From an uncultured Verrucomicrobiota bacterium (GTDB lineage Bacteria > Verrucomicrobiota > Verrucomicrobiia > Limisphaerales > UBA8199): a stretch of DNA of 64,000 nt. Location of the stretch: the NCBI GenBank assembly GCA_903873945.1, contig CAIQQM010000291.1:20386-84385 (forward strand). The letters run 5' to 3'. How positions within the stretch are numbered: the stretch's first letter is position 1; every line of letters starts with the position of its first letter. The notes beneath the pieces are model-generated. The model did no database searches. It saw only the letters and a program-made list of their open reading frames with translations, and was not told where the DNA came from. The position numbers and the translations under genes are program-made. Positions 20,275 to 39,492 of this stretch are shown here, piece by piece.

Positions 20275-21421
20275 TTAATCATCCACATCTTTGACGCCTT
20301 GCATTCTCTTCGCCGGACGCCCGGCGCGCAACCAGCCATTCGCAAACTGGTCCAATTCGCCGTCCAAAACGGCTTGCACGTTGCTGGTTTCAATTCCAGT
20401 GCGAAGATCTTTTACCATGCGGTAGGGCTGGAGAACGTAACTGCGGATCTGGTTGCCCCAGGAGATGCTGCCTTTATCGCCGTAGAAGCGCTCCATCTCG
20501 GCCTTTTGTTCGTCCAAACGCTGGGCGTAGATTTTGGAGAGCAGCATTTTCATTGCGGTAGCCCGGTTCTGATGCTGAGAACGCTGGTTTTGCGAGGCGG
20601 CAATGATCCCGGTGGGGAGGTGCGTAATGCGCACGGCAGTTTCGACCTTGTTCACGTTTTGCCCACCCTTGCCGCCCGAGCGGTAGGTATCAACTTTGAG
20701 TGCAGCAGGCGGGATGACAATCTCGGAAGACGTTTCCTCGATTTCGGCGATGGCATCGACGCTGGCGAAGCTGGTGTGGCGGCGTTTGTTTGAGTCGAAT
20801 GGCGAGATGCGCACCAGGCGATGCACCCCACGCTCAGCCTTGCAATAGCCGTAGGCGAATTCGCCGGTAATAACCATGGTGGCACTCTTGATGCCGGCGG
20901 ATTCACCCGGGAGCGCGTCAGTCACATCCACCTGCCAACCGCGCGATTCGGCCCAGCGCTGGTACATCCGCAGGAGCATGTTCGCCCAGTCACAGGACTC
21001 GGTGCCGCCCGCGCCGGCGTTGATGCTCATGATGCAATTGGCACGGTCGTGAGGGCCATTGAGAAAAACTCCAAGCTCGAGCGAATCGAGTTCCTTGAAG
21101 TAACGGGAAATGTCACGTTCGAGTTCCTGCTGGATATTGAGCTGGGCCGTTTCCGGCTCCGCTTCGCCGAGCTCAACCATGACCCGGAAGTCTTCGAGTT
21201 GCTTCTCGGCCTTCAGCAGGGGTTCGATGCGGTTGCGGAGCGAATTAGCTTCGTCGATGAGCTTTTGTGCTTGCTCCCGGTTATTCCAGAAATGATCAGC
21301 CGCCATCAGGGCGTTGAGTTCGCCTAAACGTTTTTGAGCGCCGGGAACGTCAAAGAAACCTCCGCAAATGGACCAGTTTATCGGCCACGGTGGTCAGCTC
21401 GGCTGTGATATTATCAAACAT
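20275..21421 (-). CDS. prfB: peptide chain release factor 2 (two frames joined by programmed +1 frameshift)
   Basis: Frame 0 runs 21421-21353 ([23 protein letters not shown]) and ends at an in-frame TGA (21352-21350). The +1 frame runs 21351-20275 and carries SPF (RISPFDS) and GGQ ([11 protein letters not shown]). Confidence 0.9.
21349..21363 (-). promoter_or_regulatory. prfB autoregulatory +1 frameshift site (SD-like GGAGG, then CTT TGA C)
   Basis: The minus-strand sequence reads CGGAGGTTTCTTTGAC. GGAGG lies 3 nt upstream of the slippery CTT, followed by TGA in the weak context TGAC. Confidence 0.85.
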
Positions 21422-22439: not shown

Positions 22440-22961
22440 TTGCTAAAGCGGAAAATTTTTGGCCAGAATGCGGGTGTGAATTTTCGAGAAAAAATCATTT
22501 CCTGGGAGAAATTGCCGGAGTGGCGGGCTGCTGTGCGCAGGCAAGGCAAACGATTGGTTGTTACGAATGGTTGCTTTGATCTTCTGCACGTTGGTCATGT
22601 GACTTACCTGGAGGCGGCACGCAACCAGGGTGACAGTTTACTGGTTGGTTTGAATGGGGACGAATCTGTGGGGGAGTTGAAAGGGCCGGACCGCCCCTTA
22701 AACGGACAAAATGACCGGGCAGCCGTGCTCGCCGCGCTGGAAAGTGTGGATGGTGTTTGCATCTTCCCCGAGCGAATGGCAACACACTTCCTGACCGCCG
22801 CGCAACCGGACGTTTACGTAAAGGGCGGAGATTACACGCTGGAGACGCTCAACCAGGAAGAACGCAGGGCCGTCGAGCAAGCAGGCGGGAAAATTGTGAT
22901 CATTCGGCTCGTGCCAGGAAAATCCACAACCGCGCTGTTGAAAAAGATCGCCCAATTATAA
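22440..22961 (+). CDS. hldC: stand-alone D-beta-D-heptose 1-phosphate adenylyltransferase (RfaE domain II type)
   Basis: VVTNGCFDLLHVGHVTYLEAAR (HxGH), LLVGLNGDESV, YVKGGDY. TTG start. Immediately upstream of a GT9 gene. Confidence 0.8.
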   Translation: MLKRKIFGQNAGVNFREKIISWEKLPEWRAAVRRQGKRLVVTNGCFDLLHVGHVTYLEAARNQGDSLLVGLNGDESVGELKGPDRPLNGQNDRAAVLAALESVDGVCIFPERMATHFLTAAQPDVYVKGGDYTLETLNQEERRAVEQAGGKIVIIRLVPGKSTTALLKKIAQL

Positions 22962-23026: not shown

Positions 23027-24115
23027 ATGAAAGTTTTGATAATTTCTTTGGCGGGCATTGGCGATACACTGTTCACAACCCCGCTCATCAGCGAACTACG
23101 CGCCAACTTTCCGAATGCTACGATTGACGCCCTTGTGCTCTGGGGCGGCGCGAAGGATGTGCTGCTGGGAAATCCAAATCTTAACGAGATCTTCCAAAAA
23201 AACCTCATCAAAGAAAACAAGGTTTCCTCCCTCAGGTTCCTACGAACTTTGCGGAAACGAAGGTACGACGTTTCCTTTAACACGCACCCGCAAAGCAGGG
23301 TTCATTATCGGATTGTGGCGCGCCTGATCAACGCCGGCCTGCGCGTGAGCCACGAGTACGACAATGCGACGCCGTTTGACCGCCTATTGGTCAACCGGGT
23401 GCTCAAGCAAGACTACGGAAAGCACGCCATCGAAAACAACCTGGGGTTTCTGGAGTTGATCGGCGCCCGGCTGCTGCTGCCGCGGCACGATTACGAGGTC
23501 TTTCTGACTGCGGTTGACCGGCAATGGGCTGGGGACTTTGTCGCCCGCCAAAACTGGTCCGGGCGGAAGCTTCTGGGCATCCATGTTGGCTCAGGCGGCA
23601 CAAAGAACCTGTCCCTCAGACGCTGGCCACTGGAGCATTATCTTGGGTTATTTGAAAAACTGCGCCGGAACCATCCGGAAGCGGCAGTGTTGCTTTTTGG
23701 CGGGCCGGAGGAACAGGGAGACCACGAACTGATTCTGGCGCAAACCAGTCGCGACCAAGTATGGGCTGCCGAAACCGGCAACCTTCGCCAGGTTGCCGCC
23801 TTGCTCAAACGCTGCGACGCGTTTCTTAGCGTCGATACCACGTTGATGCACTTGGCAACGGCGATGAAAGTCCCGAGGCAAATCGTGATTGAAACCCCAA
23901 CCTGGAACAAGCCGATCGAGCCATATAACAACCCGTTCGTTTTGGTCAAGAACCCGGCTGTTGGCGGACGAAACCTGGAATATTACCGCTACGACGGCCG
24001 TGGCATCCGGGGAACAAAGGAAGAGCTGCTTCGCTGCATGGCCTCAGTGACCATCGAAGCGGTGTACCAAGAGGTGGAGAAGGCCTTGGCCGGGAACCCT
24101 GGAAGCCGGGACTGA
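23027..24115 (+). CDS. glycosyltransferase family 9 (heptosyltransferase-like)
   Basis: MKVLIISLAGIGDTLFTTPLI... and VDTTLMHLATAMKVP. The 90 upstream codons of the 452-aa ORF overlap hldC and were discarded. Confidence 0.85.
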   Translation: MKVLIISLAGIGDTLFTTPLISELRANFPNATIDALVLWGGAKDVLLGNPNLNEIFQKNLIKENKVSSLRFLRTLRKRRYDVSFNTHPQSRVHYRIVARLINAGLRVSHEYDNATPFDRLLVNRVLKQDYGKHAIENNLGFLELIGARLLLPRHDYEVFLTAVDRQWAGDFVARQNWSGRKLLGIHVGSGGTKNLSLRRWPLEHYLGLFEKLRRNHPEAAVLLFGGPEEQGDHELILAQTSRDQVWAAETGNLRQVAALLKRCDAFLSVDTTLMHLATAMKVPRQIVIETPTWNKPIEPYNNPFVLVKNPAVGGRNLEYYRYDGRGIRGTKEELLRCMASVTIEAVYQEVEKALAGNPGSRD

Positions 24116-24150
24116 ACCGTTTGTTAACAATTCGGGATTCAACAATACAT

Positions 24151-25350
24151 ATGATTAATGACTTTATCATCGTTGGCGGAGGCATCGTTGGGCTCGCGAC
24201 CGCCTGGCGGCTGCAACAAGCCCAGCCGGGCTGTAAGTTGCTGCTGTTGGAGAAAGAACAGGACCTGGGGCTCCATCAGACGGGCCATAACAGCGGCGTG
24301 CTCCATTCCGGTCTTTACTACAAGCCCGGATCCAGCAAGGCGACGCTGGCAGTGCAAGGACTCCAGCAGATGATCGCTTTTTGCCGGGAGCATGGAATTC
24401 CGCACGATCAATGCGGAAAGATTGTCGTCGCCACGTCTCCCGAGGAACTCCCCAGGCTAGAGAATCTTTGGCAGCGGGGCAATGCCAATGGGTTGAAGGG
24501 ATTGCGCAAACTTTCAGCCGCGGAGATCAAAGAAATCGAACCCCACGCCGCCGGAATCGCGGCCATTCATGTGCCGCAGGAAGGGATCGTTGATTACCCG
24601 GCGGTCACCCGAAAGCTAGGCGAGTTGATCCGACAAGCCGGCGGAGAGGTGCGGCAAGGGGCACGCGTCACCCAACTGGCGCCGCGGGACAAGGAATGGC
24701 TGGTTCGAAGCTCGGCGGGGGATTTCAGTGCGCGTTTTGTTATCACCTGCGCCGGTTTACATGCGGACCGATTAGTTCGGGCCTCAGGTGGCCGGCCCTC
24801 GGCCAAGATCGTTCCCTTCCGTGGGGAGTATTACAAAATCCGCAATGAGCGGCAGTTCCTGGTCCGCAACCTCATTTACCCGATTCCAGACCCGAAGTTC
24901 CCCTTCCTTGGCGTGCACTTCACCCGGTTGATTCATGGGGGAATTGAAGCCGGCCCCAATGCAGTGCTGGCGTTTGCGCGCGAGGGATATCGCTGGACCC
25001 AAATCAATCTGCGCGACCTGACAGAAGCTGTCTTGTTCCCCGGTCTGTGGCGGTTTCTGGCGGCCTACCCGAGCATGTGCGGCTATGAAATCCGCCGTTC
25101 CCTATTCAAAGGCGAGTTTACGCGGTCGCTGCAAAAGTTGGTGCCGGAAATTCGAGTCGAAGACCTTGAAACCGGCGGTTCGGGCGTCCGGGCGCAGGCG
25201 ATGCTGCCGGAAGGCAAACTGGTTGAGGATTTCCATTTCGAAGAGGGTCCCGGCATCCTGCACGTGCTGAACGCCCCGTCGCCAGCAGCTACAGCCGCGC
25301 TGGCGATTGGCCAGCATATCGCTGAGAAAGTGTCTGGCAAGTTGCGCTAA
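24151..25350 (+). CDS. lhgO: FAD-dependent L-2-hydroxyglutarate oxidase/dehydrogenase-like
   Basis: The dinucleotide fold DFIIVGGGIVGLATA, plus HQTGHNSGVLHSGLYYKPGS and the C-terminal VLNAPSPAATAALAIG, are typical of LhgO/YgaF. Confidence 0.75.
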   Translation: MINDFIIVGGGIVGLATAWRLQQAQPGCKLLLLEKEQDLGLHQTGHNSGVLHSGLYYKPGSSKATLAVQGLQQMIAFCREHGIPHDQCGKIVVATSPEELPRLENLWQRGNANGLKGLRKLSAAEIKEIEPHAAGIAAIHVPQEGIVDYPAVTRKLGELIRQAGGEVRQGARVTQLAPRDKEWLVRSSAGDFSARFVITCAGLHADRLVRASGGRPSAKIVPFRGEYYKIRNERQFLVRNLIYPIPDPKFPFLGVHFTRLIHGGIEAGPNAVLAFAREGYRWTQINLRDLTEAVLFPGLWRFLAAYPSMCGYEIRRSLFKGEFTRSLQKLVPEIRVEDLETGGSGVRAQAMLPEGKLVEDFHFEEGPGILHVLNAPSPAATAALAIGQHIAEKVSGKLR

Positions 25351-25406: not shown

Positions 25407-25979
25407 CTACTTTCGGACTAGCTCCGGATGCTCCATGAAGGCGTAGCAGAGCATATGACAGATGCCCATTTGGGCATCTTCCACGCGGCCATAGTGGGTG
25501 TCGTTGATCATCAGGACACATTCGGCAATTTCGGCCATCCGACCCCGCTTGGCACCCACCAAGGCCACGGTCTGCAATCCGTGGTCTTTGGCCCAGCCCA
25601 GGGCTTTGACGCAGTTGGGGGAGTTGCCGCTCACGCTGATGCCCAGGGCGATGTCGCCCGGTTTTCCGTAGTTTTGCAACTGCCCGACAAACACCTCCTC
25701 ATACGAATAGTCATTGGCCAGAGCCGTCATCCAGCTCACATTGTCGTTCAAAGAAAGCACACGGAACCGTTTACCGACCTTATCAGAGGCACCCTTGCCG
25801 AGGTCCGTAGCAAAGTGAGAAGCATTGGCAGCGCTGCCGCCGTTGCCAAAAACGAAAATCTGGCTGCCCGCGTGAAGAGCGGCGCGCAGTTTCTCAATAA
25901 GTTCGGCCACCGCTTCCACGGGAATCGAGTCATGAGCGGCTTTTTGAGTTCGGATGTAGTCAGAGATCCAGTGCTTCAT
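25407..25979 (-). CDS. gmhA: SIS-domain sedoheptulose-7-phosphate isomerase-like protein
   Basis: IFVFGNGGSAANASHFATDL and ISVSGNSPN match GmhA-type SIS domains. Last gene of the long minus-strand glycan operon. Confidence 0.8.
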   Translation of the reverse strand: MKHWISDYIRTQKAAHDSIPVEAVAELIEKLRAALHAGSQIFVFGNGGSAANASHFATDLGKGASDKVGKRFRVLSLNDNVSWMTALANDYSYEEVFVGQLQNYGKPGDIALGISVSGNSPNCVKALGWAKDHGLQTVALVGAKRGRMAEIAECVLMINDTHYGRVEDAQMGICHMLCYAFMEHPELVRK

Positions 25980-26072
25980 GTAACGGAAGATGGCCCGATC
26001 TACCGGATTTGTCAGGCAATTTCCTTCCCGGCGGTCATTTAACCCCAGCGCAGCAGAGTTTCTCGGAACTGC

Positions 26073-27026
26073 CTACTGATTGTAAAGGAGGCGGAGGGCC
26101 AACTGAGCCAGGGGCCGGGGCAGGAGCTTTTTCGCCACTAATTCCCCGCTGCGGCGACAACACCGCGAGACCAGGAGCGGGGTTAAGAACTGCCGATATT
26201 CGCGCCGACTCATGATGAGACGAAGCACAGGGACACCGAACAACCCGAGTACGGCGCTGTCACGGATGCGAGGGGCGATGTCCGAACAAGCGGGCGAAGA
26301 AAGCTTGTCGAGCAGGTGGGTCAGCACCTGAAAGTGCTCTCCAGTCTTGCGCCCTCGATTGTAGAAGGATGTGGAATAGAGATAAAAATCCGACAATGGT
26401 TCCGGAATGTAGCAGACGCCGTAGCGCAAAGCGGGGACAAAAGCGGCAAACCAGTCGGCATGCCAGCGGAGTTCAGGATGAAAGCGGCCCGCTTCGAGCA
26501 AGGGTTGCCGCTTAAAAACCGCGCTGGCGGTGACAATTAATAGCTTGCCCCGCCGACCTAACCGGACCAATTCCTGCGGGGAAAGGTAGCAGGGTTTCTC
26601 GGCCATGCCCGCGGCCATAAACCACCTCAAGCCGGAGGCCGCATCGTGCCATTCGCTCACCGAACAACTCATCGCCGCCTGAGGATACCGAGCCAGCAAA
26701 GTGAGCGATTTTTCAAACAAACCCGGCTGCACCTCGTCATCTGCCGAGCCAATATATACGTAATCACCACAAGACAATTCCAAGCCCTTGTTAAGATTGG
26801 GCATGACGCCAAGGTTTTTCTCGTTTTGGATAAGCCGGACGAGCGGGTTCTGCGCGGCAATCCGCTTGATGATTTCCACACTGTCGTCGGTTGAAGCATC
26901 ATCCAAAACTAACACTTCTATTGGCCGCAGCGATTGTTTGATAATGGCGGAAAGGGAGGTGTCGAGGTATTTGCCGTGATTGTAGTTGGGGACTACAACC
27001 GAAAGCGCCGGGAGTGAAGAAGACAT
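26073..27026 (-). CDS. glycosyltransferase family 2
   Basis: LSVVVPNYNHGKYL...VLVLDDASTDDS...GSADDEV gives the GT-A DxD architecture. Confidence 0.85.
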   Translation of the reverse strand: MSSSLPALSVVVPNYNHGKYLDTSLSAIIKQSLRPIEVLVLDDASTDDSVEIIKRIAAQNPLVRLIQNEKNLGVMPNLNKGLELSCGDYVYIGSADDEVQPGLFEKSLTLLARYPQAAMSCSVSEWHDAASGLRWFMAAGMAEKPCYLSPQELVRLGRRGKLLIVTASAVFKRQPLLEAGRFHPELRWHADWFAAFVPALRYGVCYIPEPLSDFYLYSTSFYNRGRKTGEHFQVLTHLLDKLSSPACSDIAPRIRDSAVLGLFGVPVLRLIMSRREYRQFLTPLLVSRCCRRSGELVAKKLLPRPLAQLALRLLYNQ

Positions 27027-27084
27027 GTAAGGCTCGCGAACTTAGGTTTCGGGTTAGTGCAGCAAATGAGAGCAGGGGAGAGCC

Positions 27085-28209
27085 TCACACAAACGCCAAA
27101 TGCTCCGGCTCCTTTCCCTGAGGGCGTTGGAGTTCGAGTTTTTCTTTGACCAAATTGTCGAGGGTTTCATTGACACGGTGCTGCAGGCAGAGACTGCCGC
27201 ACATTTTCTGCGCATTAAACTCGGGGCTGGCCAGATAATTTATCACTTCCCAGTACCGGTCACTCTGCCAGATGTCCTTGAAACTTTGCTCGCAGATGTT
27301 CCCGATATGGAACTTCTTGTATTTTTCGTTGAACAACATGCCGCAGGGAGCCACCAGGCCCGAGCCGGAAATCTGTAGCAAAAATGGCGCGCCATAGCAG
27401 CGCTGGTAAGAGCGCGTGCCCTGGGCCTGGATTTTGCTCCACTTGACGGTGCATTGGTAGCTGGAATCGGAATAGGACTCCGCTTCGTGCAAGAGATCGC
27501 TGAGCCGCGAATAGCCGCGGTAATCCACGCCTAGGTCGCCGTTTTCGTTATCGCTGCAATGTTTGATCGCGAGGTAATCGACCCGGAGCTCTTTGCCCAG
27601 CCGCGCCAGGGGGATAATCTGATCGGCGTACTGCGGCATGAGCACCATTTGGAGACCGATCGTGACGCCGAGACGGTCGCGCCGCTTGATCTCGGTCATG
27701 TGCCGGATGTTTTCGATCACCCGATGGAAATATTCCTCCTTCACACCCATGATTTCGGCATAACGCTTGGGTTCGCCAGCGGAAATATTGACGCGCAGAT
27801 AGGTCAAGTGAGGAAGCACTTCCTCCGATTTGCTGCGCGTCAAGACATAAGCGTTGGTGCCACAGGCTATCGAGAGCCCCAGGGCGGATCCCTGCTGGCA
27901 CGACTGCACAAACACAGGCGAAATGGTGCTTTCGCCATCAGAGACAAAGCTGACACCCTTGACGCCGATTTCGGCACAGTCATTCAGAAAGCGGGAGATG
28001 ACCTGTTTATCGATGAAGCTCCGGTCATTCTCCTGGAGCATGGCATAACAATAATGGCATCCGAAATTGCAAGCCCGGGTCAGGGCCATGTCGATGGTAA
28101 TCGGAGCGATGCGCTCGCCGCGCTCCCAGGCGCGCACCCGGTCCTCGTGCCAGGCAATCTTGGTGCCGTCGAGGATCAGCTTCTCCACATGTTCAGTCAT
28201 TCCACTCAT
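27085..28209 (-). CDS. radical SAM enzyme with C-terminal SPASM/twitch-like Cys-rich domain
   Basis: CX3CX2C in ALTRACNFGCHYCYA. C-terminal cysteines lie in QRCYGAP, VAPCGMLF, GNICEQSFKDIW and KMCGSLC. The ATG at 28209 shares its A with the upstream TGA (TGATG). Confidence 0.85.
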   Translation of the reverse strand: MSGMTEHVEKLILDGTKIAWHEDRVRAWERGERIAPITIDMALTRACNFGCHYCYAMLQENDRSFIDKQVISRFLNDCAEIGVKGVSFVSDGESTISPVFVQSCQQGSALGLSIACGTNAYVLTRSKSEEVLPHLTYLRVNISAGEPKRYAEIMGVKEEYFHRVIENIRHMTEIKRRDRLGVTIGLQMVLMPQYADQIIPLARLGKELRVDYLAIKHCSDNENGDLGVDYRGYSRLSDLLHEAESYSDSSYQCTVKWSKIQAQGTRSYQRCYGAPFLLQISGSGLVAPCGMLFNEKYKKFHIGNICEQSFKDIWQSDRYWEVINYLASPEFNAQKMCGSLCLQHRVNETLDNLVKEKLELQRPQGKEPEHLAFV

Positions 28210-29291
28210 CAATTTACTTTCTCGATCTGGCGTCGAAGCTTGCTGAGGTCTTTCTTTTCCTCGCAGAACACTTCGAGCCGGGGATCGCAATGTTCCCGCA
28301 CGAGTCTTTCCAGCGCCAGCGCCAGGCTGCGCTTGGCGGAGATCGGGAGCTGGTCGCCGAACCGAACGGTGACGGCATAGGCATGGTTGCAGTCAACCAC
28401 CTGCACCTCGCCATTCTTGAGCCCAAGCACCGCGCCATGAGCGGCCAAAGCCGCGGTGACGCGCGCTTCCCGTTGGGCGGGGGACAAAGCGGCCCAGGCG
28501 GCGCGGGGGCCCGGGTCGAAAAAGTTTGCCGCCGGGCGGTAGCCAGTGGAAGTCAGATAATCGTTGAAGAGCCGGTTCGCCAACGAGGAGGGAAGCCGAA
28601 ATAGCGGGTCAGCGTTCTGGGGAAGCACGATCCCCGCGATGGGATGGCGCTGGCGCGGGTCACGCAGCGAGAATTCCAGGCGGATGATCGCATGATCTCT
28701 GGCCTCAAGCACGGGCAACCCAACCAGAATCTCACAGAAGGCGTCGAGCGCCGCCAGCATGGGGCCGCGGGCAGTCCCGTCAAAGACAGCGTCGGTGATC
28801 ACATGAGCATCGGTTTGCACCGCCCACGCCAGGGTGCAATGCTCCTCAGTGGCGCGGAGAGGAATTTGATTCTCCCGCACACGCAACTCGCGCTTAAAGC
28901 GCAGATTGGCGAAGCGCGCCCGGAGACGTTGCTGGTAAATGGGCCGCACCGAACGGAACGAGGCGGTTTCCTGCAGGTGAGCGATGGTGAAAACCACCGC
29001 GCCCGGTTCCGCCCGACAACCAACCTCACCCAGGCTGGCCAGTTTCTCCTTGAGCAAGGCAGCGGCTTGGTGCTCGATGATTTTGTTGGCTACCCGCACC
29101 GAGATGGAATCGCTGCCACAAAGCTGGGCGGCTTCGACCAGGTTGCTGAGACTCCGCACCGGGTCGTCATCCGGAACCCAGGTATCCAGCATTTCTTCAG
29201 CCGGCCGGAAGCCCCGGAGGGTGACGTCGAGATTCGTGTTGTACGCCTCAACGAGCTTGTCGTAATCGAAAATCTTTTCGGTTGTCGTCAT
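28209..29291 (-). CDS. hypothetical protein (360 aa), no family recognised; translationally coupled to the radical SAM gene
   Basis: Uninterrupted ORF embedded in the operon, 18 nt after the preceding gene, with its stop overlapping the next start. No motif I can assign. Confidence 0.6.
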   Translation of the reverse strand: MTTTEKIFDYDKLVEAYNTNLDVTLRGFRPAEEMLDTWVPDDDPVRSLSNLVEAAQLCGSDSISVRVANKIIEHQAAALLKEKLASLGEVGCRAEPGAVVFTIAHLQETASFRSVRPIYQQRLRARFANLRFKRELRVRENQIPLRATEEHCTLAWAVQTDAHVITDAVFDGTARGPMLAALDAFCEILVGLPVLEARDHAIIRLEFSLRDPRQRHPIAGIVLPQNADPLFRLPSSLANRLFNDYLTSTGYRPAANFFDPGPRAAWAALSPAQREARVTAALAAHGAVLGLKNGEVQVVDCNHAYAVTVRFGDQLPISAKRSLALALERLVREHCDPRLEVFCEEKKDLSKLRRQIEKVN

Positions 29292-29309
29292 TCGGTTCCA
29301 GCAATTTAG

Positions 29310-30419
29310 CTATTTGGACCCATTATAGTAACAATGGACAGAGTGAATAGTGAAGTCAAGCTCCTCCCGCGTCAGGTGCTGGTGGGCGGGGAGGGTAATA
29401 ATGCTGCGGCAGTCGGCTTCGGCCTTCGGGAAGGTCCCCGGTTTATACCCCAAATAGGCGGCGGCGGGTTGGAGGTGGATGGGTTTGGGATAATGCACCT
29501 TGGCTTCGATGCCGCGCTGCTGCAGGAAGGCCAGGAGGCCGTCGCGGTCCTTGGCGCGCACCATGTACAGGTGATAGACATGCTTGACGCCGGGGCGCCG
29601 GAGGGGGGGCTTGACGAACTCCGGAATGTCGGCCCAGGCGGCGTCGTAATAGGCTGCGTTCTTGATCCGGGTTTGGGTGATGAAATCCAGTTGTGGCAGG
29701 AGACGGTTGGCCACGACGGCTTGCAGGGTGTCCAGGCGGCAGTTGATGCCGAAAAACTCGATTTCGTCGCGGTTGACGAGTCCATGATTGCGATAGAGCC
29801 TGAGTTTGCGGGCCAGTTCCGCCGAGCGGGTGGTGACCACGCCTCCGTCAGCCCAAACATTCAAGTTCTTGAGCGGATGCAAGCTGTAGGCGGCAGCCTC
29901 ACCCCAGGAACCCATGGGGCGGCCGTTGAATTCGCCGCCAATCGACTGGCAGGAATCCTCGAAAATCATGAGGCCGCGTTTGTCGGCGATGGCCTTGATC
30001 CGGTCGAGGTCGGGGATATTGCCACTGAAGGTTACCGTGACGATGGCTTTGGTCCGGGGCGTAATGGCCGCTTCGATCTTCTCGGGATCAATCATGAGAC
30101 CGTCTTCACTGTCCACGAGCACGGGACGCGCGCCGGTGGCGACGATGGCGCCGACGGTGGCGTAGAAGGTCATGGTGGTGGTGATCACTTCATCGCCCGG
30201 ACCGATGCCGGAGAGTTTCATCGGCAGGATCAACGCATCCGTTCCGGTGCCTACGCCGATGGCGTGCGGCATGCCGGCGCGTTTGGCAAAACGCTCTTCG
30301 AACTCCGTCAGCGGCTTGCCCAAAGTGAAATCTCCGCTTTTCACCAGCGCCCGGATATCGTGCAGATAATCTTCGACGTCAGCGAATTGGCGGTCCAGAT
30401 AGGAGAAAGGGACTTTCAT
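29310..30419 (-). CDS. DegT/DnrJ/EryC1/StrS-family PLP-dependent sugar aminotransferase
   Basis: MKVPFSYLDRQF... with the PLP-lysine motif YSLHPLKNLNVWADGG. I used the start at 30419 (M21 of the ORF-track translation). Confidence 0.9.
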   Translation of the reverse strand: MKVPFSYLDRQFADVEDYLHDIRALVKSGDFTLGKPLTEFEERFAKRAGMPHAIGVGTGTDALILPMKLSGIGPGDEVITTTMTFYATVGAIVATGARPVLVDSEDGLMIDPEKIEAAITPRTKAIVTVTFSGNIPDLDRIKAIADKRGLMIFEDSCQSIGGEFNGRPMGSWGEAAAYSLHPLKNLNVWADGGVVTTRSAELARKLRLYRNHGLVNRDEIEFFGINCRLDTLQAVVANRLLPQLDFITQTRIKNAAYYDAAWADIPEFVKPPLRRPGVKHVYHLYMVRAKDRDGLLAFLQQRGIEAKVHYPKPIHLQPAAAYLGYKPGTFPKAEADCRSIITLPAHQHLTREELDFTIHSVHCYYNGSK

Positions 30420-30432
30420 GGGATAATGGGAT

Positions 30433-31545
30433 TTAGTTCGTTTTATAAAAATCGAGGATGGCCTGAGCAACTGCGTCAATTTGCTGGCCGCTGAGTTCGG
30501 AATAGATGGGGAGGCTGAGAATTCGCCCAGCCAGACGTTCGCAAACCGGGAAGTCTCCTTCGCGGTGGCCCAACCGCCGGCCGACGGTCATCAAATGGAT
30601 GGGGACGGGGTAATGGATGGCTGTTCCGATGCCTTGCGTTTGCAGGTACTGGACCAACTCATCCCGCTTGTCGGCCTGCACTACGAACGTGTGATAGACA
30701 CAGAATTCGCCGGGGCCATCGACGGGGCATTGCAGGCGCCGGCAGGCAGCCAAACGCAGACGATAGCGTTCGGCATTGGCCCGGCGGGAGGCGGTGATAG
30801 CCTCCAGGTGCCGAAGCTTGACCCGGAGTATGGCGGCCTGGATGGAATCAAGACGGGACACCATGCTGAATTCAAGACAATCATTCCGACTGGGCTGGCC
30901 ATGGTTGCGCAGCAGCCGCGCGCGCTGCCAAACCGATTCGTCATCGGTAACCAGCATTCCGCCATCGCCGCAGGCGTTCAGATTCTTCAACGGGTGGAGG
31001 CTGAAGCAGCCGATCCGGCTGAGTGAGCCCACCGGCTTTCCGTGCAAAGCCGCACCAACCGCCTGGGCCGCATCTTCGATCAGTTCCACCCCGCGCTCTT
31101 GCGCGAGGGCTGACAACTCTTTCATCGCCGCAGGTTTGCCGGTCAGATGCACTGGAATAATGGCCCTGGTGCGCGGAGTAATGGCGCGGGCCACGGCTTC
31201 CGGGTCCAAATTCAAATCATCCCGCACATCGGCAAACTTCGGCACGGCTCCGGCCAGGGCAATGCAACTGGCGCTGGCGAGATAAGAATTGGGAGCCGTA
31301 ATCACTTCATCGCCCGGCCCGATGCCGAGGCACCGAAGCGCGAGGATCAAAGCGTCGGTTCCTGAATTGAGCCCCACGGCGTAGCGGGCGCCGCAAAAAA
31401 CGGCAAACTCCTGCTCAAAGCGCTCGGTTTCCTCGCCCAGAATAAACTGGCCCGAATCGAGCACCCCCGCGACAGCCTGGAGCATCTGCTCGCGCTGGGG
31501 GTGTTGCCGGTGGGACAGGTTTACGTAAGGAATGGATGTGCTCAT
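30433..31545 (-). CDS. DegT/DnrJ/EryC1/StrS-family PLP-dependent sugar aminotransferase (second paralog)
   Basis: IPYVNLSHRQ... with the PLP-lysine motif FSLHPLKNLNACGDGG. I used the start at 31545 (M28 of the ORF-track translation). Confidence 0.9.
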   Translation of the reverse strand: MSTSIPYVNLSHRQHPQREQMLQAVAGVLDSGQFILGEETERFEQEFAVFCGARYAVGLNSGTDALILALRCLGIGPGDEVITAPNSYLASASCIALAGAVPKFADVRDDLNLDPEAVARAITPRTRAIIPVHLTGKPAAMKELSALAQERGVELIEDAAQAVGAALHGKPVGSLSRIGCFSLHPLKNLNACGDGGMLVTDDESVWQRARLLRNHGQPSRNDCLEFSMVSRLDSIQAAILRVKLRHLEAITASRRANAERYRLRLAACRRLQCPVDGPGEFCVYHTFVVQADKRDELVQYLQTQGIGTAIHYPVPIHLMTVGRRLGHREGDFPVCERLAGRILSLPIYSELSGQQIDAVAQAILDFYKTN

Positions 31546-31558
31546 TGCAAACCAGGAT

Positions 31559-32635
31559 TTAGAAAGGACCAGGAAACTCAAGGTATGGGACATCCACAGG
31601 ACAGGGCCGCTTGGGAAACTTATCAACCAAACTGGCTCCGCGCCCGACGATCCGCGCGGCCGCCAGAAATAAGTCGGGGGCGGCCGGATAATAAACCGCC
31701 GCCAGCGCGGAAGAGCTGGGGGAGGCGCAATCCGGGTAAGTCACGCGCACGGGTGGAGCATTCAATTTCAACCCCGCCTCGCCAACCCGGGCGACGATCT
31801 CCGCCGCAAATCCGCACTGACGGGTATCGTCATCCGCCACCACCAATCCCCGGGTCTTTTTCACAGAGTTGGCAATCGTCTCGAAGTCCAGCGGATTCAA
31901 GCATCGCACGTCCACAACCTCCATTTCCACCCCCGCGTGGGCGGAGGCAAAATCCGCAGCCCGCAAGGCTTCAATCACCATGTGGGAACTGGCCACTACC
32001 GTCACATCCGAACCGCTCCTCGCGACCAGACACTCGCCCAAAGGAGTGCGGTGATAACCCTCCGGCACAGGTCCGCGCATATTGTGCAGCCAACGATGCT
32101 CCAGAAAAATCACAGGGTTGTCGTCCTCCACGCTGGCGACCAGCAGGCCTTTGGCATCCGCCGGCGAGGCCGGGGCAACCACTTTTAGACCGGGTATATG
32201 CGCAAACCAAGAGCTTAGACTCTGGGCGTGCTGGGGCCCCTGCCCCCAGCCCCGGCCGATGATCATTCGGATCACAATCGGGATCGTGCCGCCGCGGCCG
32301 TCAAACATGTAATACCATTTGGCCGCCTGGTTGACGATTTGTTCAAGGCTCAAGAGCGCAAAATCGACGCGTTGATGGGTAAGGATGGGGCGCATTCCGC
32401 CCAAGGCCGCGCCAATGACCAGACCGGTCAGAGCGTTTTCGGACAACGGCACATCCAGAGCCCGATCGGCGCCGAACTCGGCCGCCAGCTCGGCGGTGGT
32501 TCCGAAAATCCCTTTCGGGTCGGGCACTCCCAGGCCAATCACAAAAGCACGCGGGTCGCGGGCCAGGCAGAGAGCGGTGCCTTCGCGGATGGCCTCGGCG
32601 AAGGTCAGCTCTCGTGTTGGGGATTTGTCGCTCAT
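31559..32635 (-). CDS. ThDP-dependent 2-oxoacid dehydrogenase E1 component, beta-subunit-like (transketolase Pyr/C domains)
   Basis: TFAEAIREGTALCLARDPRAFVIGLGV..., DVPLSENALTGLVIGAALGGMRPI, FLEHRWLH. The start overlaps the E1alpha stop (ATGA at 32632-32635). Confidence 0.85.
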   Translation of the reverse strand: MSDKSPTRELTFAEAIREGTALCLARDPRAFVIGLGVPDPKGIFGTTAELAAEFGADRALDVPLSENALTGLVIGAALGGMRPILTHQRVDFALLSLEQIVNQAAKWYYMFDGRGGTIPIVIRMIIGRGWGQGPQHAQSLSSWFAHIPGLKVVAPASPADAKGLLVASVEDDNPVIFLEHRWLHNMRGPVPEGYHRTPLGECLVARSGSDVTVVASSHMVIEALRAADFASAHAGVEMEVVDVRCLNPLDFETIANSVKKTRGLVVADDDTRQCGFAAEIVARVGEAGLKLNAPPVRVTYPDCASPSSSALAAVYYPAAPDLFLAAARIVGRGASLVDKFPKRPCPVDVPYLEFPGPF

Positions 32636-33660
32636 GGCGCAAACACTCCCCTCTGCAAGGTCGCCGCGTCCGGCATGGGACTGGAGCGGACATTTTCAAT
32701 GACCGCATCGATTTCCCGGATATATCGTTTTTCGGCCGCTGTCATTTCCGGGTCGAGTGCCGGGCTCAATGCCAGCAAGCGCGTTCGCGCGACAGCTAAG
32801 GGGCAACGCTCCGCCCAATGCTTGATCTGTTCCGCCTCGCGGTAGCCTAGGTGGTCATCCTGTCCGGGGCCGCAGTGTTCGTAATAGCGCCAGGTGGAAA
32901 ACTCGACCACACACGGCCGGCCCGGGTCTTGGCGCATGGCGGAAAGCGCCTGGCCGGTCAGAGCGAAGACTTCTTCAACATCGTTGCCATGCCCTGAGAA
33001 ATAGAGGCTCCCGTGGCTTCGCACGTAACTTCCAAATTCAAAATCCGGGGCGCGCCGCAAACTGAGGGGCGTGTAAACCGAGAAGCCATTGTTTTCGCAG
33101 ATGAAAAGCATCGGCACGCGCAACACGCACGCAAGGTTGAGCGTTTCGGTGAAAACCCCCTCTTCGGTTGCGCCTTCGCCGAAAAATGCGGTGGTCAGCT
33201 CATCGCCACCTCTCCGTTTGTCGGCTAACGCCAGCCCCAAGGCGATGGGCATAGTGCTGCCCACGATCGGCACCGCGCCCCAAAAACCGGCTTCCCGGTC
33301 GATCAGATGCATCGAGCCGCCGCGGCCGCCGCAGCAGCCGGCTTCCCGGCCATAGAGTTCGGCGAGCATGGCGCGGATATTGCCGCCTTTGGCCAGATAG
33401 TGGCCGTGAGACCGGTGCGCGCTCATCACTTTGTCCTGCTTGCGCAAATGAGCGCAAACTCCGACCGCCACAGCTTCCTGGCCGATGCTCAGGTGGACCG
33501 GACAGCGCATCTCTTTCTCACCGTAACGCTCCGCGATGCGCCGCTCGATAACGCGGATGCGCAGCATCTCCAGATACAGGCGCCAGAGCCGATCGCATAT
33601 TTGGCTTGAGGTTTCCGCCCGGGGCGGCTGGCTCAGAGGCACCGGTGAGTTGGCCATCAT
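32632..33660 (-). CDS. ThDP-dependent 2-oxoacid dehydrogenase E1 component, alpha-subunit-like
   Basis: LSIGQEAVAVGV, HRSHGHYLAKG, GGRGGSMH. The ThDP motif reads FFGEGATEEG...ENNGFSV, so GDG is GEG here. Confidence 0.85.
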   Translation of the reverse strand: MMANSPVPLSQPPRAETSSQICDRLWRLYLEMLRIRVIERRIAERYGEKEMRCPVHLSIGQEAVAVGVCAHLRKQDKVMSAHRSHGHYLAKGGNIRAMLAELYGREAGCCGGRGGSMHLIDREAGFWGAVPIVGSTMPIALGLALADKRRGGDELTTAFFGEGATEEGVFTETLNLACVLRVPMLFICENNGFSVYTPLSLRRAPDFEFGSYVRSHGSLYFSGHGNDVEEVFALTGQALSAMRQDPGRPCVVEFSTWRYYEHCGPGQDDHLGYREAEQIKHWAERCPLAVARTRLLALSPALDPEMTAAEKRYIREIDAVIENVRSSPMPDAATLQRGVFAP

Positions 33661-33676
33661 TGTGCGGAGTTGAGCC

Positions 33677-34696
33677 TTATCGAATGCGGAGTTCCTGCAT
33701 CCGCTTGATATTCGAAAAGAGCGTATTGGTCATCGGGTTGGGTATTTTCCCGGCTCGGTAGGCGACGGCAATGCTGCTGATGGCATCCTCGATGGTGAAC
33801 TTTGGCTCGAACCCGAGCACGTTCTTGATCTTCTCAGAGTTGACATGGTAGGAGCGATTGTCGTTCGTCGGCGTGTACTCCAATTCGATGACCGGATCAT
33901 CGAGCACTTTGACCACCATTTTCGCAATGTCTTCGATCGAGCGATTCTGGAAGCCGACATTGAAGGCCTCGCGGTCAATTTTGGCGCCGGGTGCTTGCAG
34001 GAATAGATGATAGGCCCGCACCATATCGTCGATGTGGAGGTTGGGGCGGAGCTGTTTGCCGCCAAAGATGCGGATCTTACGGTTCACGAGCGCGTTGATC
34101 GTGAGAATATTAACGCTGAGGTCAAGCCGCAGGCGCGGTGCGTAGCCGCAGATAGTCGCCGGACGCACGATGACGCGTTCCATGCCATTGGCATTGGAGT
34201 GGGCCAACAGATCCCGCTCGCAATCCAGCTTGAAACGCGAGTAATCCGTCAACGGCTCAGGCGCAGCATCCTCGCGGACATTCGGGTCCTCCTTAACTCC
34301 GTAAATGCTGGAAGAGCTGGCGTAGACGAACCGCTTGACGCCCTGGTCGATGGAACTCTGCAGCAACCCGGCAAACGCGTCGTAGTTGATCGATTTGCCA
34401 AGCGAAGGATCGAGTTCGAAACTCGGGTCGTTGGAAATGCATGCCAGGTGGATAACGGCGTCGATGCCCTTGAGCGCCGCTTTCAGGCGTGTACTGTTGC
34501 GGATGTCCAACTCGATCCGTTCAAGCTGTGGATTCCGGTTGGCGTCGCCATAGACGTCGCGGCCGTACCAAAACAGATCGACGACTTTGACCTCGTAGCC
34601 TTGCTTGAGTAGAGAGGGCACGAGGGCGCTGCCGACGTAGCCGCCACCCCCAGTGACCAGGACTGATTTGAATTCATGAGGATGCTGCTTGTTCAT
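33677..34696 (-). CDS. NAD-dependent sugar epimerase/dehydratase (extended SDR)
   Basis: VLVTGGGGYVGSAL (GxxGxxG), the ASSSSIYG serine, and the YSRFK (YxxxK) catalytic dyad. Confidence 0.9.
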   Translation of the reverse strand: MNKQHPHEFKSVLVTGGGGYVGSALVPSLLKQGYEVKVVDLFWYGRDVYGDANRNPQLERIELDIRNSTRLKAALKGIDAVIHLACISNDPSFELDPSLGKSINYDAFAGLLQSSIDQGVKRFVYASSSSIYGVKEDPNVREDAAPEPLTDYSRFKLDCERDLLAHSNANGMERVIVRPATICGYAPRLRLDLSVNILTINALVNRKIRIFGGKQLRPNLHIDDMVRAYHLFLQAPGAKIDREAFNVGFQNRSIEDIAKMVVKVLDDPVIELEYTPTNDNRSYHVNSEKIKNVLGFEPKFTIEDAISSIAVAYRAGKIPNPMTNTLFSNIKRMQELRIR

Positions 34697-34703
34697 AAAA
34701 ACG

Positions 34704-36233
34704 TTACTTCATCAAAGACGTGATATGCCGGAACAGGCTTGTCGGCTCGATGAAGCTGCGGTGGCCCATAATAGTGCAGGCTTCCGCTCCGACGACGTTC
34801 GCGATAAAACCGAGCACCTGGGGCGGCACGCTCAAGGCCGCGCAAGGGGCTGTAAGGCCCAGCACGGCATCTCCCGCGCCGACGCGGTCCACGACGCGGA
34901 TGGCAAACGCGGGCACGTGGAAAGTGCCTTGTTCACGGTCATGAACCAAGCAACCGGAGGCGCCGCGCGTCACGAGGAAGTTTTTCGTTGAGATTTTACG
35001 GGCGATACCTTCAGCCAGGCCCCGCAGGTCGCCGCTGGCTTTGCGGGCGTCGAGGCGGACTTCGGGATCCCCGATAGAGACAAAATCGGCGCGCGGGTAT
35101 TTTGAGATGGTGTTGAAGCCTTTGTTGCCGGCATTGGCCTGAGTGTTGACGGCCAGGAATTTGGATTTCTTGCAGACTAATTCCACGCCCCGGTCAGTCA
35201 TCAAGCCGTGGCCATAATCGGCGACCACCACCAGGTCAAATTGTGGGGCCAGCCGTTCCAGCGCGGAGCAGAACTCCGCCTCCGCCTCGGCTGGCATGGC
35301 GTCATTGCGCATCACATAGACCTCAAAGAGCTTGGCTGAGAGATATTCCTCGAGAAACCGGCGTTTGATGATCGTCGGCGCACCCGCCACCCGGACGAAT
35401 TGAGGCGTGATGTTCTTATTCAGTTTGGAGAGGATGAAATCCTCGCACGAATTGATCTGCCCAACCGAACTGAGAAGGGTGACATTGTCGCAAAAGTTCG
35501 AGATGTGATTGGCAATGGCCGGCGCGCCGCCGGCGTATTGCTCGGTTCGATTATGCAGGGCGGCCAGCACCGGTTCCTTGCCGGATTTGCCCATCACCGA
35601 GCAAAACTGGTATTCGTCGATAATGGTTTCCCCCACAATGAGCACCTTAAGTTTGCGAATGGCCTGAAGGTAGCCGACGATCTCTTCCGGAGTGTGGCGC
35701 ATGCGGAACTGCTCGAGGAACGCCTTGGTTTCCGTGGAAAAAACGTCCGTAAACCGGTTAATGAGGGCCGACGCGCTAAAGGTTTCCTCATCGGTGAGCA
35801 CGAGTTGCCCGCCAGTCGCTTTGACGGCATTCTCCTCTTTGTCGATGGCATCGGTATGGTCGCGTTTTCCCGCCTCGCGCACGATGCCTTTCACATAGAA
35901 CGAAGGCCGGAGCCGTTCTATGGTTTCCACCGCCGTAGGCCATTCATTGATGGCGACAAAATCGACACAGGCAAGGGAAGCCAGGGCTTCCGCACGCAAA
36001 CGTTCGGGAAAGGCGGGGCGATGGGGTCCTTTGTTGACGAACCGGTCGGGGGTAATCGTCACGACGAGCAAATCGCCTAACTTGCGGGCCGCTTCAAGAT
36101 GCTTGATGTGTCCGATATGCAACAGGTCAAAAACTCCGTGGCAGTGCACGGCCCTCTTCCCTTCGGCTCGAAGTACTGCCAGGGTTTTGGCCAGGTCCTC
36201 GATCGGTCTTATCTTGCGCTCGGTCGTGTCCAT
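34704..36233 (-). CDS. bifunctional sugar-phosphate nucleotidyltransferase (N) / PfkB-family sugar kinase (C), HldE-like with reversed domain order
   Basis: The N-terminal domain has HCHGVFDLLHIGHIKHLEAARK (HxGH) and FYVKG. The C-terminal domain has VNTQANAGN and VDRVGAGDAVLG (PfkB signature). I chose the ATG at 36233 (MDTTERK); the 116 upstream codons look non-coding. Confidence 0.8.
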   Translation of the reverse strand: MDTTERKIRPIEDLAKTLAVLRAEGKRAVHCHGVFDLLHIGHIKHLEAARKLGDLLVVTITPDRFVNKGPHRPAFPERLRAEALASLACVDFVAINEWPTAVETIERLRPSFYVKGIVREAGKRDHTDAIDKEENAVKATGGQLVLTDEETFSASALINRFTDVFSTETKAFLEQFRMRHTPEEIVGYLQAIRKLKVLIVGETIIDEYQFCSVMGKSGKEPVLAALHNRTEQYAGGAPAIANHISNFCDNVTLLSSVGQINSCEDFILSKLNKNITPQFVRVAGAPTIIKRRFLEEYLSAKLFEVYVMRNDAMPAEAEAEFCSALERLAPQFDLVVVADYGHGLMTDRGVELVCKKSKFLAVNTQANAGNKGFNTISKYPRADFVSIGDPEVRLDARKASGDLRGLAEGIARKISTKNFLVTRGASGCLVHDREQGTFHVPAFAIRVVDRVGAGDAVLGLTAPCAALSVPPQVLGFIANVVGAEACTIMGHRSFIEPTSLFRHITSLMK

Positions 36234-39359: not shown

Positions 39360-39492
39360 CCTTTCCGGGGCGTTGCGATTCAATTTTCCCTATCTTTGAC
39401 TTCCTGTGGCGAGCGGCAGACAGGGTCGGAGCACGCGCTTAGCAGTCCGTGACGCTCCCCCGCCGCAAGGGAGACGCGGGTTACGTATTCTT

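Follow-up and report, generated by a model that had tools for sequence, protein, structure and literature searches.

A co-conserved gene pair of a twitch-type radical SAM enzyme and a protein with an IscU-like fold: a candidate two-component enzyme in a widespread sugar-nucleotide cassette

Why should a radical S-adenosylmethionine (SAM) enzyme in a sugar-nucleotide pathway be encoded together with a 360-aa protein that belongs to no annotated family? The question is raised by a stretch of 64,000 nt from an uncultured Verrucomicrobiota bacterium (assembly GCA_903873945.1, contig CAIQQM010000291.1), which was analyzed as a whole and is called the window below. The gene of the 360-aa protein (gene X; its product, X) and the radical SAM gene (its product, the enzyme) are read one after the other on the minus strand of the window. 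We hypothesized that X and the enzyme are the two components of one pathway-specific radical SAM enzyme, whose substrate would be an intermediate derived from a nucleoside diphosphate (NDP)-heptose and in which X would be the accessory subunit. We assign this explanation a probability of roughly 0.45.

The gene pair and its distribution

The stop codon of X (TGA, 28211-28209) and the start codon of the radical SAM gene (ATG, 28209-28207) have base 28209 in common, and the minus-strand junction reads ...GTA AAT TGA TG AGT GGA ATG.... An earlier interpretation made from the DNA alone (the sequence-only reading) had described this shared base and two DegT aminotransferase genes directly upstream of X, and both descriptions proved correct. 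Homologues of the enzyme, close and distant, begin with MSGMxxHxE and are 371-376 aa in length; this consensus N-terminus marks the ATG at 28209 as the genuine start codon of the radical SAM gene. A longer open reading frame (ORF) initiated by TTG from 28290 was rejected, as no homologue backs that start.

The sequence-only reading had further taken the overlap to imply stoichiometric co-production of the two proteins. Stop/start overlaps of 1 or 4 nt are a common feature of operons. ATGA or TGATG overlaps were also found at other loci (L001, L002, L004, L006-L008, L012, L013 and L022; loci are cited by L numbers), and about half of the adjacent X/radical SAM pairs overlap by 1 or 4 nt. Therefore, the overlap alone does not prove stoichiometric co-production, and this claim over-read a frequent arrangement. 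Within the ten-gene array of the window, genes overlap at only two junctions, by 4 nt between E1 alpha and E1 beta and by 1 nt between X and the radical SAM gene; E1 alpha and E1 beta are known to form a heteromer in pyruvate dehydrogenase. It is the co-occurrence of X and the radical SAM gene, not their overlap, that places the linkage far beyond chance.

Co-occurrence was assessed from both sides. The loci found through X comprised 19 genome loci, metagenome loci and L029, and six look-ups began from the radical SAM orthologue; the counts cover loci with enough flanking sequence to judge. A radical SAM orthologue was present at 22 of 22 X loci and also at L029 (23 in all), and X lay beside the orthologue in all six look-ups that started from the enzyme. 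Both genes were confirmed by hidden Markov models at L026-L029 and L031. The radical SAM gene mostly lies directly downstream of X. The pair was found in Verrucomicrobiota, Eremiobacterota, Planctomycetia, Omnitrophota, Acidobacteriota (Bryobacteraceae), Bacteriovoracales/Bdellovibrionota, Chloroflexota, SAR324, Rhodospirillales, Xanthobacteraceae and a gammaproteobacterium, covering more than 10 phyla overall; the closest relatives of the X of the window, at 70-73% identity, are from Verrucomicrobiota. The two genes are thus co-conserved, in keeping with the pairing proposed in the sequence-only reading.

Neither X nor the radical SAM gene was present at L025 (Coxiella burnetii) or L030 (21 kb). 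Since both genes are missing from these two cassettes, to which the window is linked by DegT_b, the pair appears to be gained and lost as one unit. Meanwhile, a paralogue of the enzyme encoded on a Solidesulfovibrio plasmid is 39% identical to it and keeps all eight conserved Cys, including Cys218, and no X was present within 9 kb of this gene. The X-less paralogue suggests that X is tied to the present orthologue and its pathway and not to the fold or clusters in general. Around the paralogue (L032, Solidesulfovibrio carbinolicus plasmid pDCAR1, 9001-10098) are genes for methyltransferases, further radical SAM proteins and an MptE/Maf-like protein, which make up an island of the flagellin-glycosylation type. 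L006 (CAYIOH010000041.1) is labelled as an uncultured Bifidobacteriaceae metagenome-assembled genome (MAG); its cassette is 73-89% identical to those of the window and of Verrucomicrobiota MAGs, and the label is probably a binning error.

Clusters and fold of the radical SAM enzyme

The enzyme is a member of the radical SAM superfamily. Pfam Radical_SAM (PF04055) scored 47.6 bits against a cut-off of 29.5, C47, C51 and C54 are invariant, the predicted structure contains the barrel, and the structural matches are radical SAM enzymes. The CNFGCHYC motif and at least five C-terminal Cys noted earlier were present, with seven Cys past residue 200. The orthologues are 67-91% identical across phyla, and 148 of 374 positions are invariant in 18 sequences from more than 10 phyla. 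The conserved Cys are C47, C51, C54, C218, C271, C289, C337 and C341.

Pfam SPASM also scored above its cut-off (35 bits, cut-off 21.5), as its first half is common to twitch and SPASM domains. A full SPASM domain is defined by seven Cys (CX9-15GX4C ... CX2CX5CX3C ... C); in the enzyme, CX12GX4C is followed only by C337-X3-C341, and the CX2CX5CX3C motif is absent. The four invariant Cys at 271, 289, 337 and 341 correspond to one predicted auxiliary site, and residues 271-341 align Cys to Cys with residues 167-234 of BtrN. Because the second motif is missing and the segment aligns with the twitch domain of BtrN, we regard the domain as twitch-like, and the enzyme most likely carries one auxiliary [4Fe-4S] cluster. 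The SPASM/twitch assignment of the sequence-only reading therefore held for the twitch-like site, but not for a full SPASM motif or for the segment that it had highlighted, GNICEQSFKDIW. C306, the Cys of this segment, is conserved in only 39% of the orthologues, and GNICEQSFKDIW aligns with GNIGEQHISDIW of BtrN, in which a Gly stands opposite C306. C306 was accordingly rejected as a cluster ligand.

The AlphaFold2 (AF2) model of the enzyme had a predicted local distance difference test (pLDDT) score of 80.6 and a predicted template modeling score of 0.84. In a Foldseek search with this model, the top six matches were DesII chains (E 1e-14; template modeling (TM) score 0.62-0.67 on the query), followed by SuiB, SkfB, PqqE, MoaA, anSME and BlsE. 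DesII was also the best PDB match in a single-sequence search (E 6e-5), over core residues 34-203 only, and similarity to BtrN was confined to the auxiliary domain (E 0.03). The kinship with sugar enzymes proposed earlier was thus upheld, with DesII nearest by structure and single sequence and BtrN by the auxiliary domain. The DesII model TIGR04426 gave 31.4 bits against a cut-off of 450, placing the enzyme outside that family. Since curated cut-offs were failed and the domain composition differs, the enzyme, as judged from its sequence, is one that would work like DesII or BtrN yet is a member of neither family.

Similarity to maturases suggests a different relationship, in which X is a protein substrate and the enzyme modifies its tail or C186, much as anSME and RiPP (ribosomally synthesized and post-translationally modified peptide) maturases treat their targets. 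The best curated model was that of the W-cofactor maturase (TIGR04317, 80.7 bits, cut-off 380), with lower scores for GeoRSP (50.1 bits, cut-off 400), SkfB (35.5, cut-off 300) and PqqE (35.1, cut-off 381). SuiB and SkfB ranked high in the fold search, a profile search of the PDB placed SkfB first and DesII second, and the C-terminal tail of X is invariant and flexible. However, the maturase scores were 4-15 times under their cut-offs, DesII was the top structural neighbour, C186 is lacking in 7% of the X members, and the context consists wholly of sugar-nucleotide enzymes and glycosyltransferases. A Pfam/NCBIfam scan found no domain resembling PqqD or the RiPP recognition element (RRE), and no conserved precursor gene was seen in the cassettes. 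The enzyme therefore does not qualify as a RiPP or protein maturase; SkfB and SuiB come as close seconds to the sugar enzymes, SkfB even leading in the profile search, and no robust grouping with RiPP maturases emerged. We consider it highly improbable that X is the substrate.

A viperin-like antiviral enzyme was also considered and rejected: PADLOC pVip (48 bits) matched only core residues 39-191, NCBIfam viperin scored 40 bits against a cut-off of 180, and the context is a glycan locus. Separately, a 47-codon ORF lies just after the radical SAM gene on an Acidobacteriota-like contig (L003, 12778-12921) and again in a second sample; none was seen in the other loci.

Protein X and its proposed role

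X matched no Pfam or NCBIfam model, and when it was searched as a single sequence, PADLOC and the PDB likewise gave no match. It has 73 close relatives, and an exhaustive profile search extended the family to 1034 clusters at 50% identity (E<=1e-3), 469 of them with E<=1e-30; nearly all members are 350-470 aa in length. The Azospirillum member is named 'hypothetical protein' in RefSeq, and some members are named 'NifU-like protein involved in Fe-S cluster formation' by JGI. The relationship to IscU came to light only through the family profile and the AF2 model, which showed three domains and a tail (mean pLDDT 84). The central domain matched IscU (2Z7E, 3LVL) and SufU (5XT5) in Foldseek with E values of 9e-5 to 7e-4, a probability of 1.00 and TM scores of 0.64-0.70 on the target. 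The family profile matched SufU/IscU chains weakly (E 0.06-2, best 0.056), and NifU_N gave weak sub-threshold matches in 16 of 31 members; the X of the window scored 12 bits against a cut-off of 22. The C-terminal domain (~260-345) had no PDB homologue detectable by sequence.

The sequence-only reading had called X a protein of no recognizable family and had distrusted a faint echo of NifU. The former statement stands for Pfam and NCBIfam but gives way to a remote IscU/SufU fold at residues ~116-250; the echo was real at the level of the fold, and the ligand cysteines are indeed absent, as it had said. Apart from this remote match, X did not fall into a characterized family with an independent function.

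About 20 positions of X are at least 90% conserved among 153 diverse members. They include R26, W38, V39, C186, E196, H200, R210, G220, F231, N256, W266, E328, D348 and R353, with R26 and D348 at 100% and R353 at 97%; C186, E196, H200, R210, G220 and F231 belong to the central domain. X has seven Cys, as had been counted earlier. The sole conserved Cys column is C186 (93%, i.e., missing in 7% of the members), which lies in a helix distant from the ancestral IscU cluster site, and where SufU has its ligand Cys, X has variable residues other than Cys. Nor did X show a conserved motif of the LPPVK type. With a single conserved Cys column among the 153 members and other residues at the ligand positions, X is an IscU fold stripped of its cluster ligands; a true Fe-S scaffold was rejected.

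X could still serve as a NifU-like factor that matures or repairs an Fe-S cluster of the enzyme, such as an auxiliary cluster that turnover uses up or damages, perhaps with a cluster at the interface. The fold of its central domain and the JGI name of some members would agree with such a factor, as would its constant co-encoding with an enzyme predicted to carry two clusters. However, the three Cys and the His/Asp ligands are all missing, with C186 left alone off the ancestral site; the Solidesulfovibrio paralogue has the same eight Cys and no X nearby; and the window encodes an ordinary SUF system (SufB/D and SufC genes, 52277-54547, plus strand) apart from X. We consider a maturation factor quite improbable.

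In several Alphaproteobacteria and one Chloroflexota genome, two adjacent genes of ~100 and ~240 aa take the place of X, divided exactly where the N-terminal domain meets the IscU-like domain (L018, 9977-11042; L022, 9992-11087; L024, 9998-11022; and a JGI Rhodospirillaceae contig). On the Rhodospirillaceae contig, the opposite strand carries the radical SAM gene.

The pLDDT of X falls below 50 at residues 23-30 and 348-360, where the L25-R26-G27-F28 loop and the D348...R353-R354 tail are found. Conserved segments that are unplaced in a monomer model are typical of parts that become ordered on a partner; from the model, we infer that the two invariant segments of X may order on a partner or ligand. 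In the proposed two-component enzyme, X would dock through its LRGF loop (R26) and its D348...R353/R354 tail and would help to bind or present the substrate, supplying what the N-terminal domain of DesII itself supplies. The cassette would convert an NDP-activated heptose into an unusual amino sugar destined for a surface glycan. Bound at the C47/C51/C54 cluster, SAM would give rise to a 5'-deoxyadenosyl radical, which would take hydrogen from a carbinol carbon of the NDP-sugar to produce an alpha-hydroxyalkyl radical. The latter could become a ketone in one of two ways: an electron may pass to the twitch auxiliary cluster (C271/C289/C337/C341), as in BtrN, or a vicinal amine may be expelled, as in DesII. 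The ketone would then be taken up by the adjacent DegT aminotransferase, by the E1-like thiamine enzyme or by both.

Several observations weigh against this explanation. The two genes are kilobases apart or on opposite strands at L014, L019, L020, L021 and the Rhodospirillaceae contig; together with the overlap in only about half of the adjacent pairs, this indicates that tight coupling is not required. X evolves 3-4 times faster than the enzyme, which is odd for an obligate subunit: at the same divergence, the enzyme is 67-75% identical where X falls to 25-38%, and in Azospirillum the values are 73.5% and 30%, respectively. The residues conserved in X are largely polar (R, C, E, H, N and D) and would equally fit an independent enzyme. 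The leading position of SkfB in the profile search counts on the same side, and the invariant Cys218 points towards an epimerase over dehydrogenase or deaminase chemistry.

Some of these observations would be explained if X were an independent enzyme of an adjacent step, such as an isomerase, epimerase or dehydratase with catalytic C186, E196 and H200, which forms no complex with the radical SAM enzyme. The two genes would then occur together because they serve consecutive steps. R26, C186, E196, H200, R210, N256, E328, D348 and R353 are of the polar or catalytic type, the fast divergence and the separated genes would be expected, and no ketoisomerase was recognizable in the cassette. On the other hand, no enzyme family or cofactor site was detectable in X, and its only recognizable domain has a scaffold fold with no catalytic members known. 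Several of its invariant residues are in parts of the monomer for which disorder is predicted. Moreover, X was never found without the radical SAM orthologue, and both are gone from the Coxiella-type cassettes. We regard an independent enzyme as unlikely.

Cys218 raises the question of the reaction itself. If the enzyme were an epimerase of the NeoN/HygY type, Cys218 would return hydrogen to the opposite face of the substrate and so invert a single stereocentre of the sugar, which is compatible with X as a partner. Cys218 is invariant and is required by neither cluster; it is placed where strand beta-6 ends, at the barrel mouth, and even the paralogue with 39% identity has kept it. In NeoN and HygY, a Cys of this kind is the hydrogen-atom donor. 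EpeE, a peptide epimerase with a C223A mutant entry in the PDB, was among the Foldseek matches, but DesII and BlsE outranked it. In addition, the two aminotransferases need keto substrates, and only one clearly oxidizing short-chain dehydrogenase/reductase (SDR) is encoded in the window. Epimerization is therefore unlikely in our judgment.

The two-component explanation can be taken further, to a version that we consider possible but doubtful. Here, the IscU fold would have been repurposed as an obligatory substrate-presenting subunit, and the cassette would make a higher-carbon diamino sugar for lipopolysaccharide (LPS), exopolysaccharide or flagellin in more than 10 phyla. The Coxiella burnetii phase I LPS region would, with the same doubt, represent a simpler variant of the cassette without X and the radical SAM gene. 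We conjecture that a heptose joined to a two-carbon unit from pyruvate might yield a nine-carbon diamino sugar.

The sugar cassette and comparison with known systems

The pair belongs to a ten-gene array on one strand (25407-36230), ordered as reversed HldE, SDR, E1 alpha, E1 beta, DegT_a, DegT_b, X, radical SAM, family 2 glycosyltransferase (GT2) and GmhA-like SIS (Table 1). The array is part of a glycan locus that also encodes a flippase, additional GT2 enzymes, a C-methyltransferase of the TylC3 type and a YfhO-like protein.

Table 1. Positions of the genes of the array and of features within X and the radical SAM enzyme, in window coordinates.
Feature	Position	Strand	Evidence
Gene X; product of 360 aa with three domains and a conserved tail, family without annotation	28209..29291	-	ORF list
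X N-terminal alpha/beta domain, aa 1-112; R26 (LRGF loop), W38-V39-P40	28956..29291	-	AF2, conservation
X central IscU/SufU-like domain, aa ~116-250, without cluster ligands	28542..28946	-	Foldseek, profiles
X C-terminal alpha-beta-beta-alpha-beta domain, aa ~260-345; conserved W266, E328	28257..28514	-	AF2, conservation
X C-terminal tail, aa 346-360; D348, R353/R354	28212..28256	-	AF2 pLDDT <50, conservation
TGATG stop/start overlap of X and radical SAM genes	28207..28211	-	Sequence
Radical SAM/twitch-domain enzyme, 374 aa	27085..28209	-	Pfam Radical_SAM and SPASM
CX3CX2C motif, C47/C51/C54, SAM-binding [4Fe-4S] cluster	28048..28071	-	Invariant
Non-cluster Cys218 (KHCSD, end of strand beta-6)	27556..27558	-	Alignments, AF2; invariant
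Twitch-like auxiliary domain, aa 271-341, C271-X12-G-X4-C289...C337-X3-C341	27187..27399	-	Invariant Cys
GmhA-like SIS sedoheptulose-7-phosphate isomerase paralogue	25407..25979	-	SIS_2
GT2 glycosyltransferase downstream of the radical SAM gene	26073..27026	-	Kept in place in L006-L008
DegT_b sugar aminotransferase, pyridoxal phosphate (PLP)-lysine motif SLHPLKNLN	29310..30419	-	Pfam DegT, 332 bits
DegT_a sugar aminotransferase, PLP-lysine motif	30433..31548	-	Pfam DegT, 367 bits
E1 beta-like thiamine-diphosphate enzyme subunit	31559..32635	-	Transket_pyr, Transketolase_C
E1 alpha-like thiamine-diphosphate enzyme subunit; stop overlaps E1 beta start by 4 nt	32632..33660	-	E1_dh, 175 bits
SDR epimerase/oxidase-type enzyme (SSSSIYG ... 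YSRFK)	33677..34696	-	Pfam Epimerase
Reversed-domain HldE-like protein, N-terminal nucleotidyltransferase and C-terminal PfkB kinase	34704..36230	-	Pfam, rfaE models

Both DegT proteins are members of Pfam PF01041 and have the PLP-binding Lys, within SLHPLKNLN in both translations, and not the His of ColD-type dehydratases. The closest structures of both are 3-aminotransferases, those of DegT_a being DesV (2OGA), QdtB and WbpE. DegT_b matched 3UWC, a Coxiella burnetii aminotransferase with 58% identity (E 2e-139). The pyruvate dehydrogenase E1-beta model scored 266 bits with the E1 beta-like protein, below its cut-off of 321. The gmhA and HldE models likewise gave sub-cut-off scores (118 bits, cut-off 209, and 153 bits, cut-off 521, respectively), rfaE domains I and II were below cut-off, and the domain order of the HldE-like protein is reversed, which places these proteins outside the canonical GmhA and HldE families. 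By sequence they are best read as paralogues, and the sugar may be a heptose. A 4,6-dehydratase role of the SDR was not supported, as its motifs contain no Asp-Glu pair; a desosamine-like route via a 4-keto-6-deoxy sugar is therefore not supported.

Across loci, the recurrent companions of the pair are the GmhA-like SIS gene (in the cassette at L010, L018, L023, L026, L028 and L031), reversed HldE, one or two SDRs, E1 alpha/beta, two DegT genes and often a MutT-like Nudix gene. The two aminotransferases stressed in the sequence-only reading do adjoin the pair in the window; however, the E1 genes are the most constant immediate neighbours, and L005, L026 and L029 have the order E1 alpha-E1 beta-(methyltransferase)-X-radical SAM with no DegT gene beside the pair. 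A small MutT-like Nudix gene directly follows the radical SAM gene at L005 (11128-11535), L029 (5824-6348), L031 (15133-15708) and on the Rhodospirillaceae contig, and is absent from the window; its product might, for instance, hydrolyze or re-activate the NDP-sugar.

Other genes of the window were observed around the array. The TylC3-type sugar C-methyltransferase (Methyltransf_13/14) lies at 39406-40740 on the plus strand, and a homologue adjoins E1 beta at L025 (15953-17191). Past the SIS end, the opposite (plus) strand carries a stand-alone RfaE-domain-II-like cytidylyl/adenylyltransferase (22440-22961) followed by genes at 23027-24115 and 24121-25350, the trio including a GT9 heptosyltransferase and a flavin adenine dinucleotide-dependent DAO-family oxidoreductase. 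From these genes, the host appears to have separate core-heptose genes beside the cassette paralogues. A second, unrelated radical SAM gene, CofH/MqnC-like, is located at 49750-50916 (minus strand). A release-factor-2-like ORF at 20275-21306 (minus strand) starts with MAADHFWNN... and looks N-terminally short, which may be due to the programmed +1 frameshift that is usual in prfB.

Two further carriers are of note. In Magnetovibrionaceae (L027, 11137-21122), the cassette adjoins FlaF, TPR-GT41 proteins and a Maf_flag10/MptE-like gene, which suggests that the sugar there serves flagellin glycosylation rather than LPS. Azospirillum oryzae KACC 14407, a cultured soil bacterium, has a complete cassette (L031, 3353-15708) on a 318-kb plasmid (NZ_CP054615.1), with three SDRs, PfkB/HldE-like, SIS, E1 alpha, E1 beta, two DegTs, X (WP_149200355.1), radical SAM (WP_211101130.1) and NUDIX. 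GT4 genes follow the cassette, and farther downstream come a set of genes resembling those for lasso peptides and genes for phage tail fibres. This cultured carrier makes the pair directly testable.

Sugar-modifying radical SAM enzymes such as DesII, BtrN, AprD4, NeoN and HygY form a small group, every member of which has revealed new radical chemistry. Our literature search found nothing on X, this radical SAM orthologue or the cassette product, and nothing relevant on radical SAM with heptose and thiamine, NifU-like with DegT, or Coxiella with radical SAM. To judge from sequence comparison, what is new here would be a twitch radical SAM sugar enzyme with an unannotated partner family, in an uncharacterized and very widespread cassette. 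An enzyme identity of 67-75% between Verrucomicrobiota and Proteobacteria reflects extraordinary constraint, beside a fast-evolving X. Solving the pair would give a function to a 'hypothetical protein' family that numbers 1034 or more clusters at 50% identity and would show what an IscU fold does after cluster loss; a repurposed IscU subunit, if true, would be a previously undescribed kind of radical SAM partner. Such work would probably also uncover a new sugar of wide occurrence in bacteria. There is also a link to a pathogen, as the reversed HldE, E1-like and DegT genes are shared with the Coxiella burnetii phase I LPS region, in which CBU0678 is needed for full-length, virulence-associated LPS.

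Among known systems, the O-antigen region of Coxiella burnetii has part of the gene content in common with the cassette. CBU0674-0678 comprise a paralogue of GmhA, SDRs and, as CBU0678, the HldE with reversed domains, which is essential for phase I LPS (PMC5843353, PMC13552124). Like the window, Coxiella has E1 alpha/beta, two DegTs (one being 3UWC) and a TylC3-type C-methyltransferase. X and the radical SAM orthologue were absent within 10 kb of the DegT pair, CBU0679-CBU0687 and the remaining genome lying outside this comparison. E1 alpha/beta, two DegT genes and a TylC3-like C-methyltransferase gene are found at L025 and at its relative L030, the latter with reversed HldE and SDRs in addition; both loci also contain several ORFs of 389-470 aa without a Pfam or NCBIfam match, and L030 has a GFO_IDH_MocA oxidoreductase. 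E1-like alpha and beta subunits without an E2 also occur in a deoxysugar cluster, that of avilamycin (AviB1/AviB2), in which they attach a two-carbon branch. Their likeness to the E1-like genes of the window is one of description. X is absent from such pathways, in which the radical SAM protein, AviX12, is an epimerase that acts separately.

DesII, the TDP (thymidine diphosphate)-4-amino-4,6-dideoxy-D-glucose deaminase of the desosamine pathway (PDB 8HZV/8HZY), is the nearest solved structure to the enzyme. It contains a single cluster; six helices make up its N-terminal domain, and a beta-hairpin plus two helices its C-terminal one (PMC11434129). DesII acts on a nucleotide sugar between the DegT-family enzymes DesI and DesV, and DegT_a of the window is closest to DesV. 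Whereas DesII has a single [4Fe-4S] cluster and no partner protein, the enzyme has a short N-terminus without the six-helix domain, has gained four auxiliary Cys as predicted cluster ligands, and has Cys218 and a co-encoded X. BtrN, the 2-deoxy-scyllo-inosamine dehydrogenase of butirosin synthesis (PDB 4M7S/4M7T), has a twitch domain like the enzyme, and C271, C289 and C337 align with its auxiliary-cluster Cys. BtrN converts a carbinol to a ketone, which is aminated next by a DegT-family aminotransferase. However, BtrN has 250 aa and no partner protein, and its substrate is an aminocyclitol, not a nucleotide sugar.

The sugar epimerases NeoN and HygY combine a twitch domain with an essential non-cluster Cys that donates a hydrogen atom, and mutation of this Cys turns HygY into a dehydrogenase. 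As judged from these descriptions, Cys218 of the enzyme may fill the same role; their substrates are aminoglycoside pseudo-oligosaccharides, and they have no dedicated partner. To our knowledge, no sugar-modifying radical SAM enzyme has a dedicated non-redox partner of the X kind. Accessory proteins (PqqD and RRE domains) are known for peptide-modifying radical SAM enzymes and have a different fold, that of winged-helix peptide binders; PqqD, encoded next to the SPASM/twitch enzyme PqqE, is a small protein that binds and presents the substrate. X differs from PqqD in its 360-aa length, its IscU fold and its context, which is that of a sugar nucleotide and not a peptide. X in turn has the fold of IscU, SufU and the N-terminal domain of NifU at residues ~116-250 without their cluster or zinc ligands, adds two domains and a conserved tail, and is found in sugar cassettes and not in isc, suf or nif operons.

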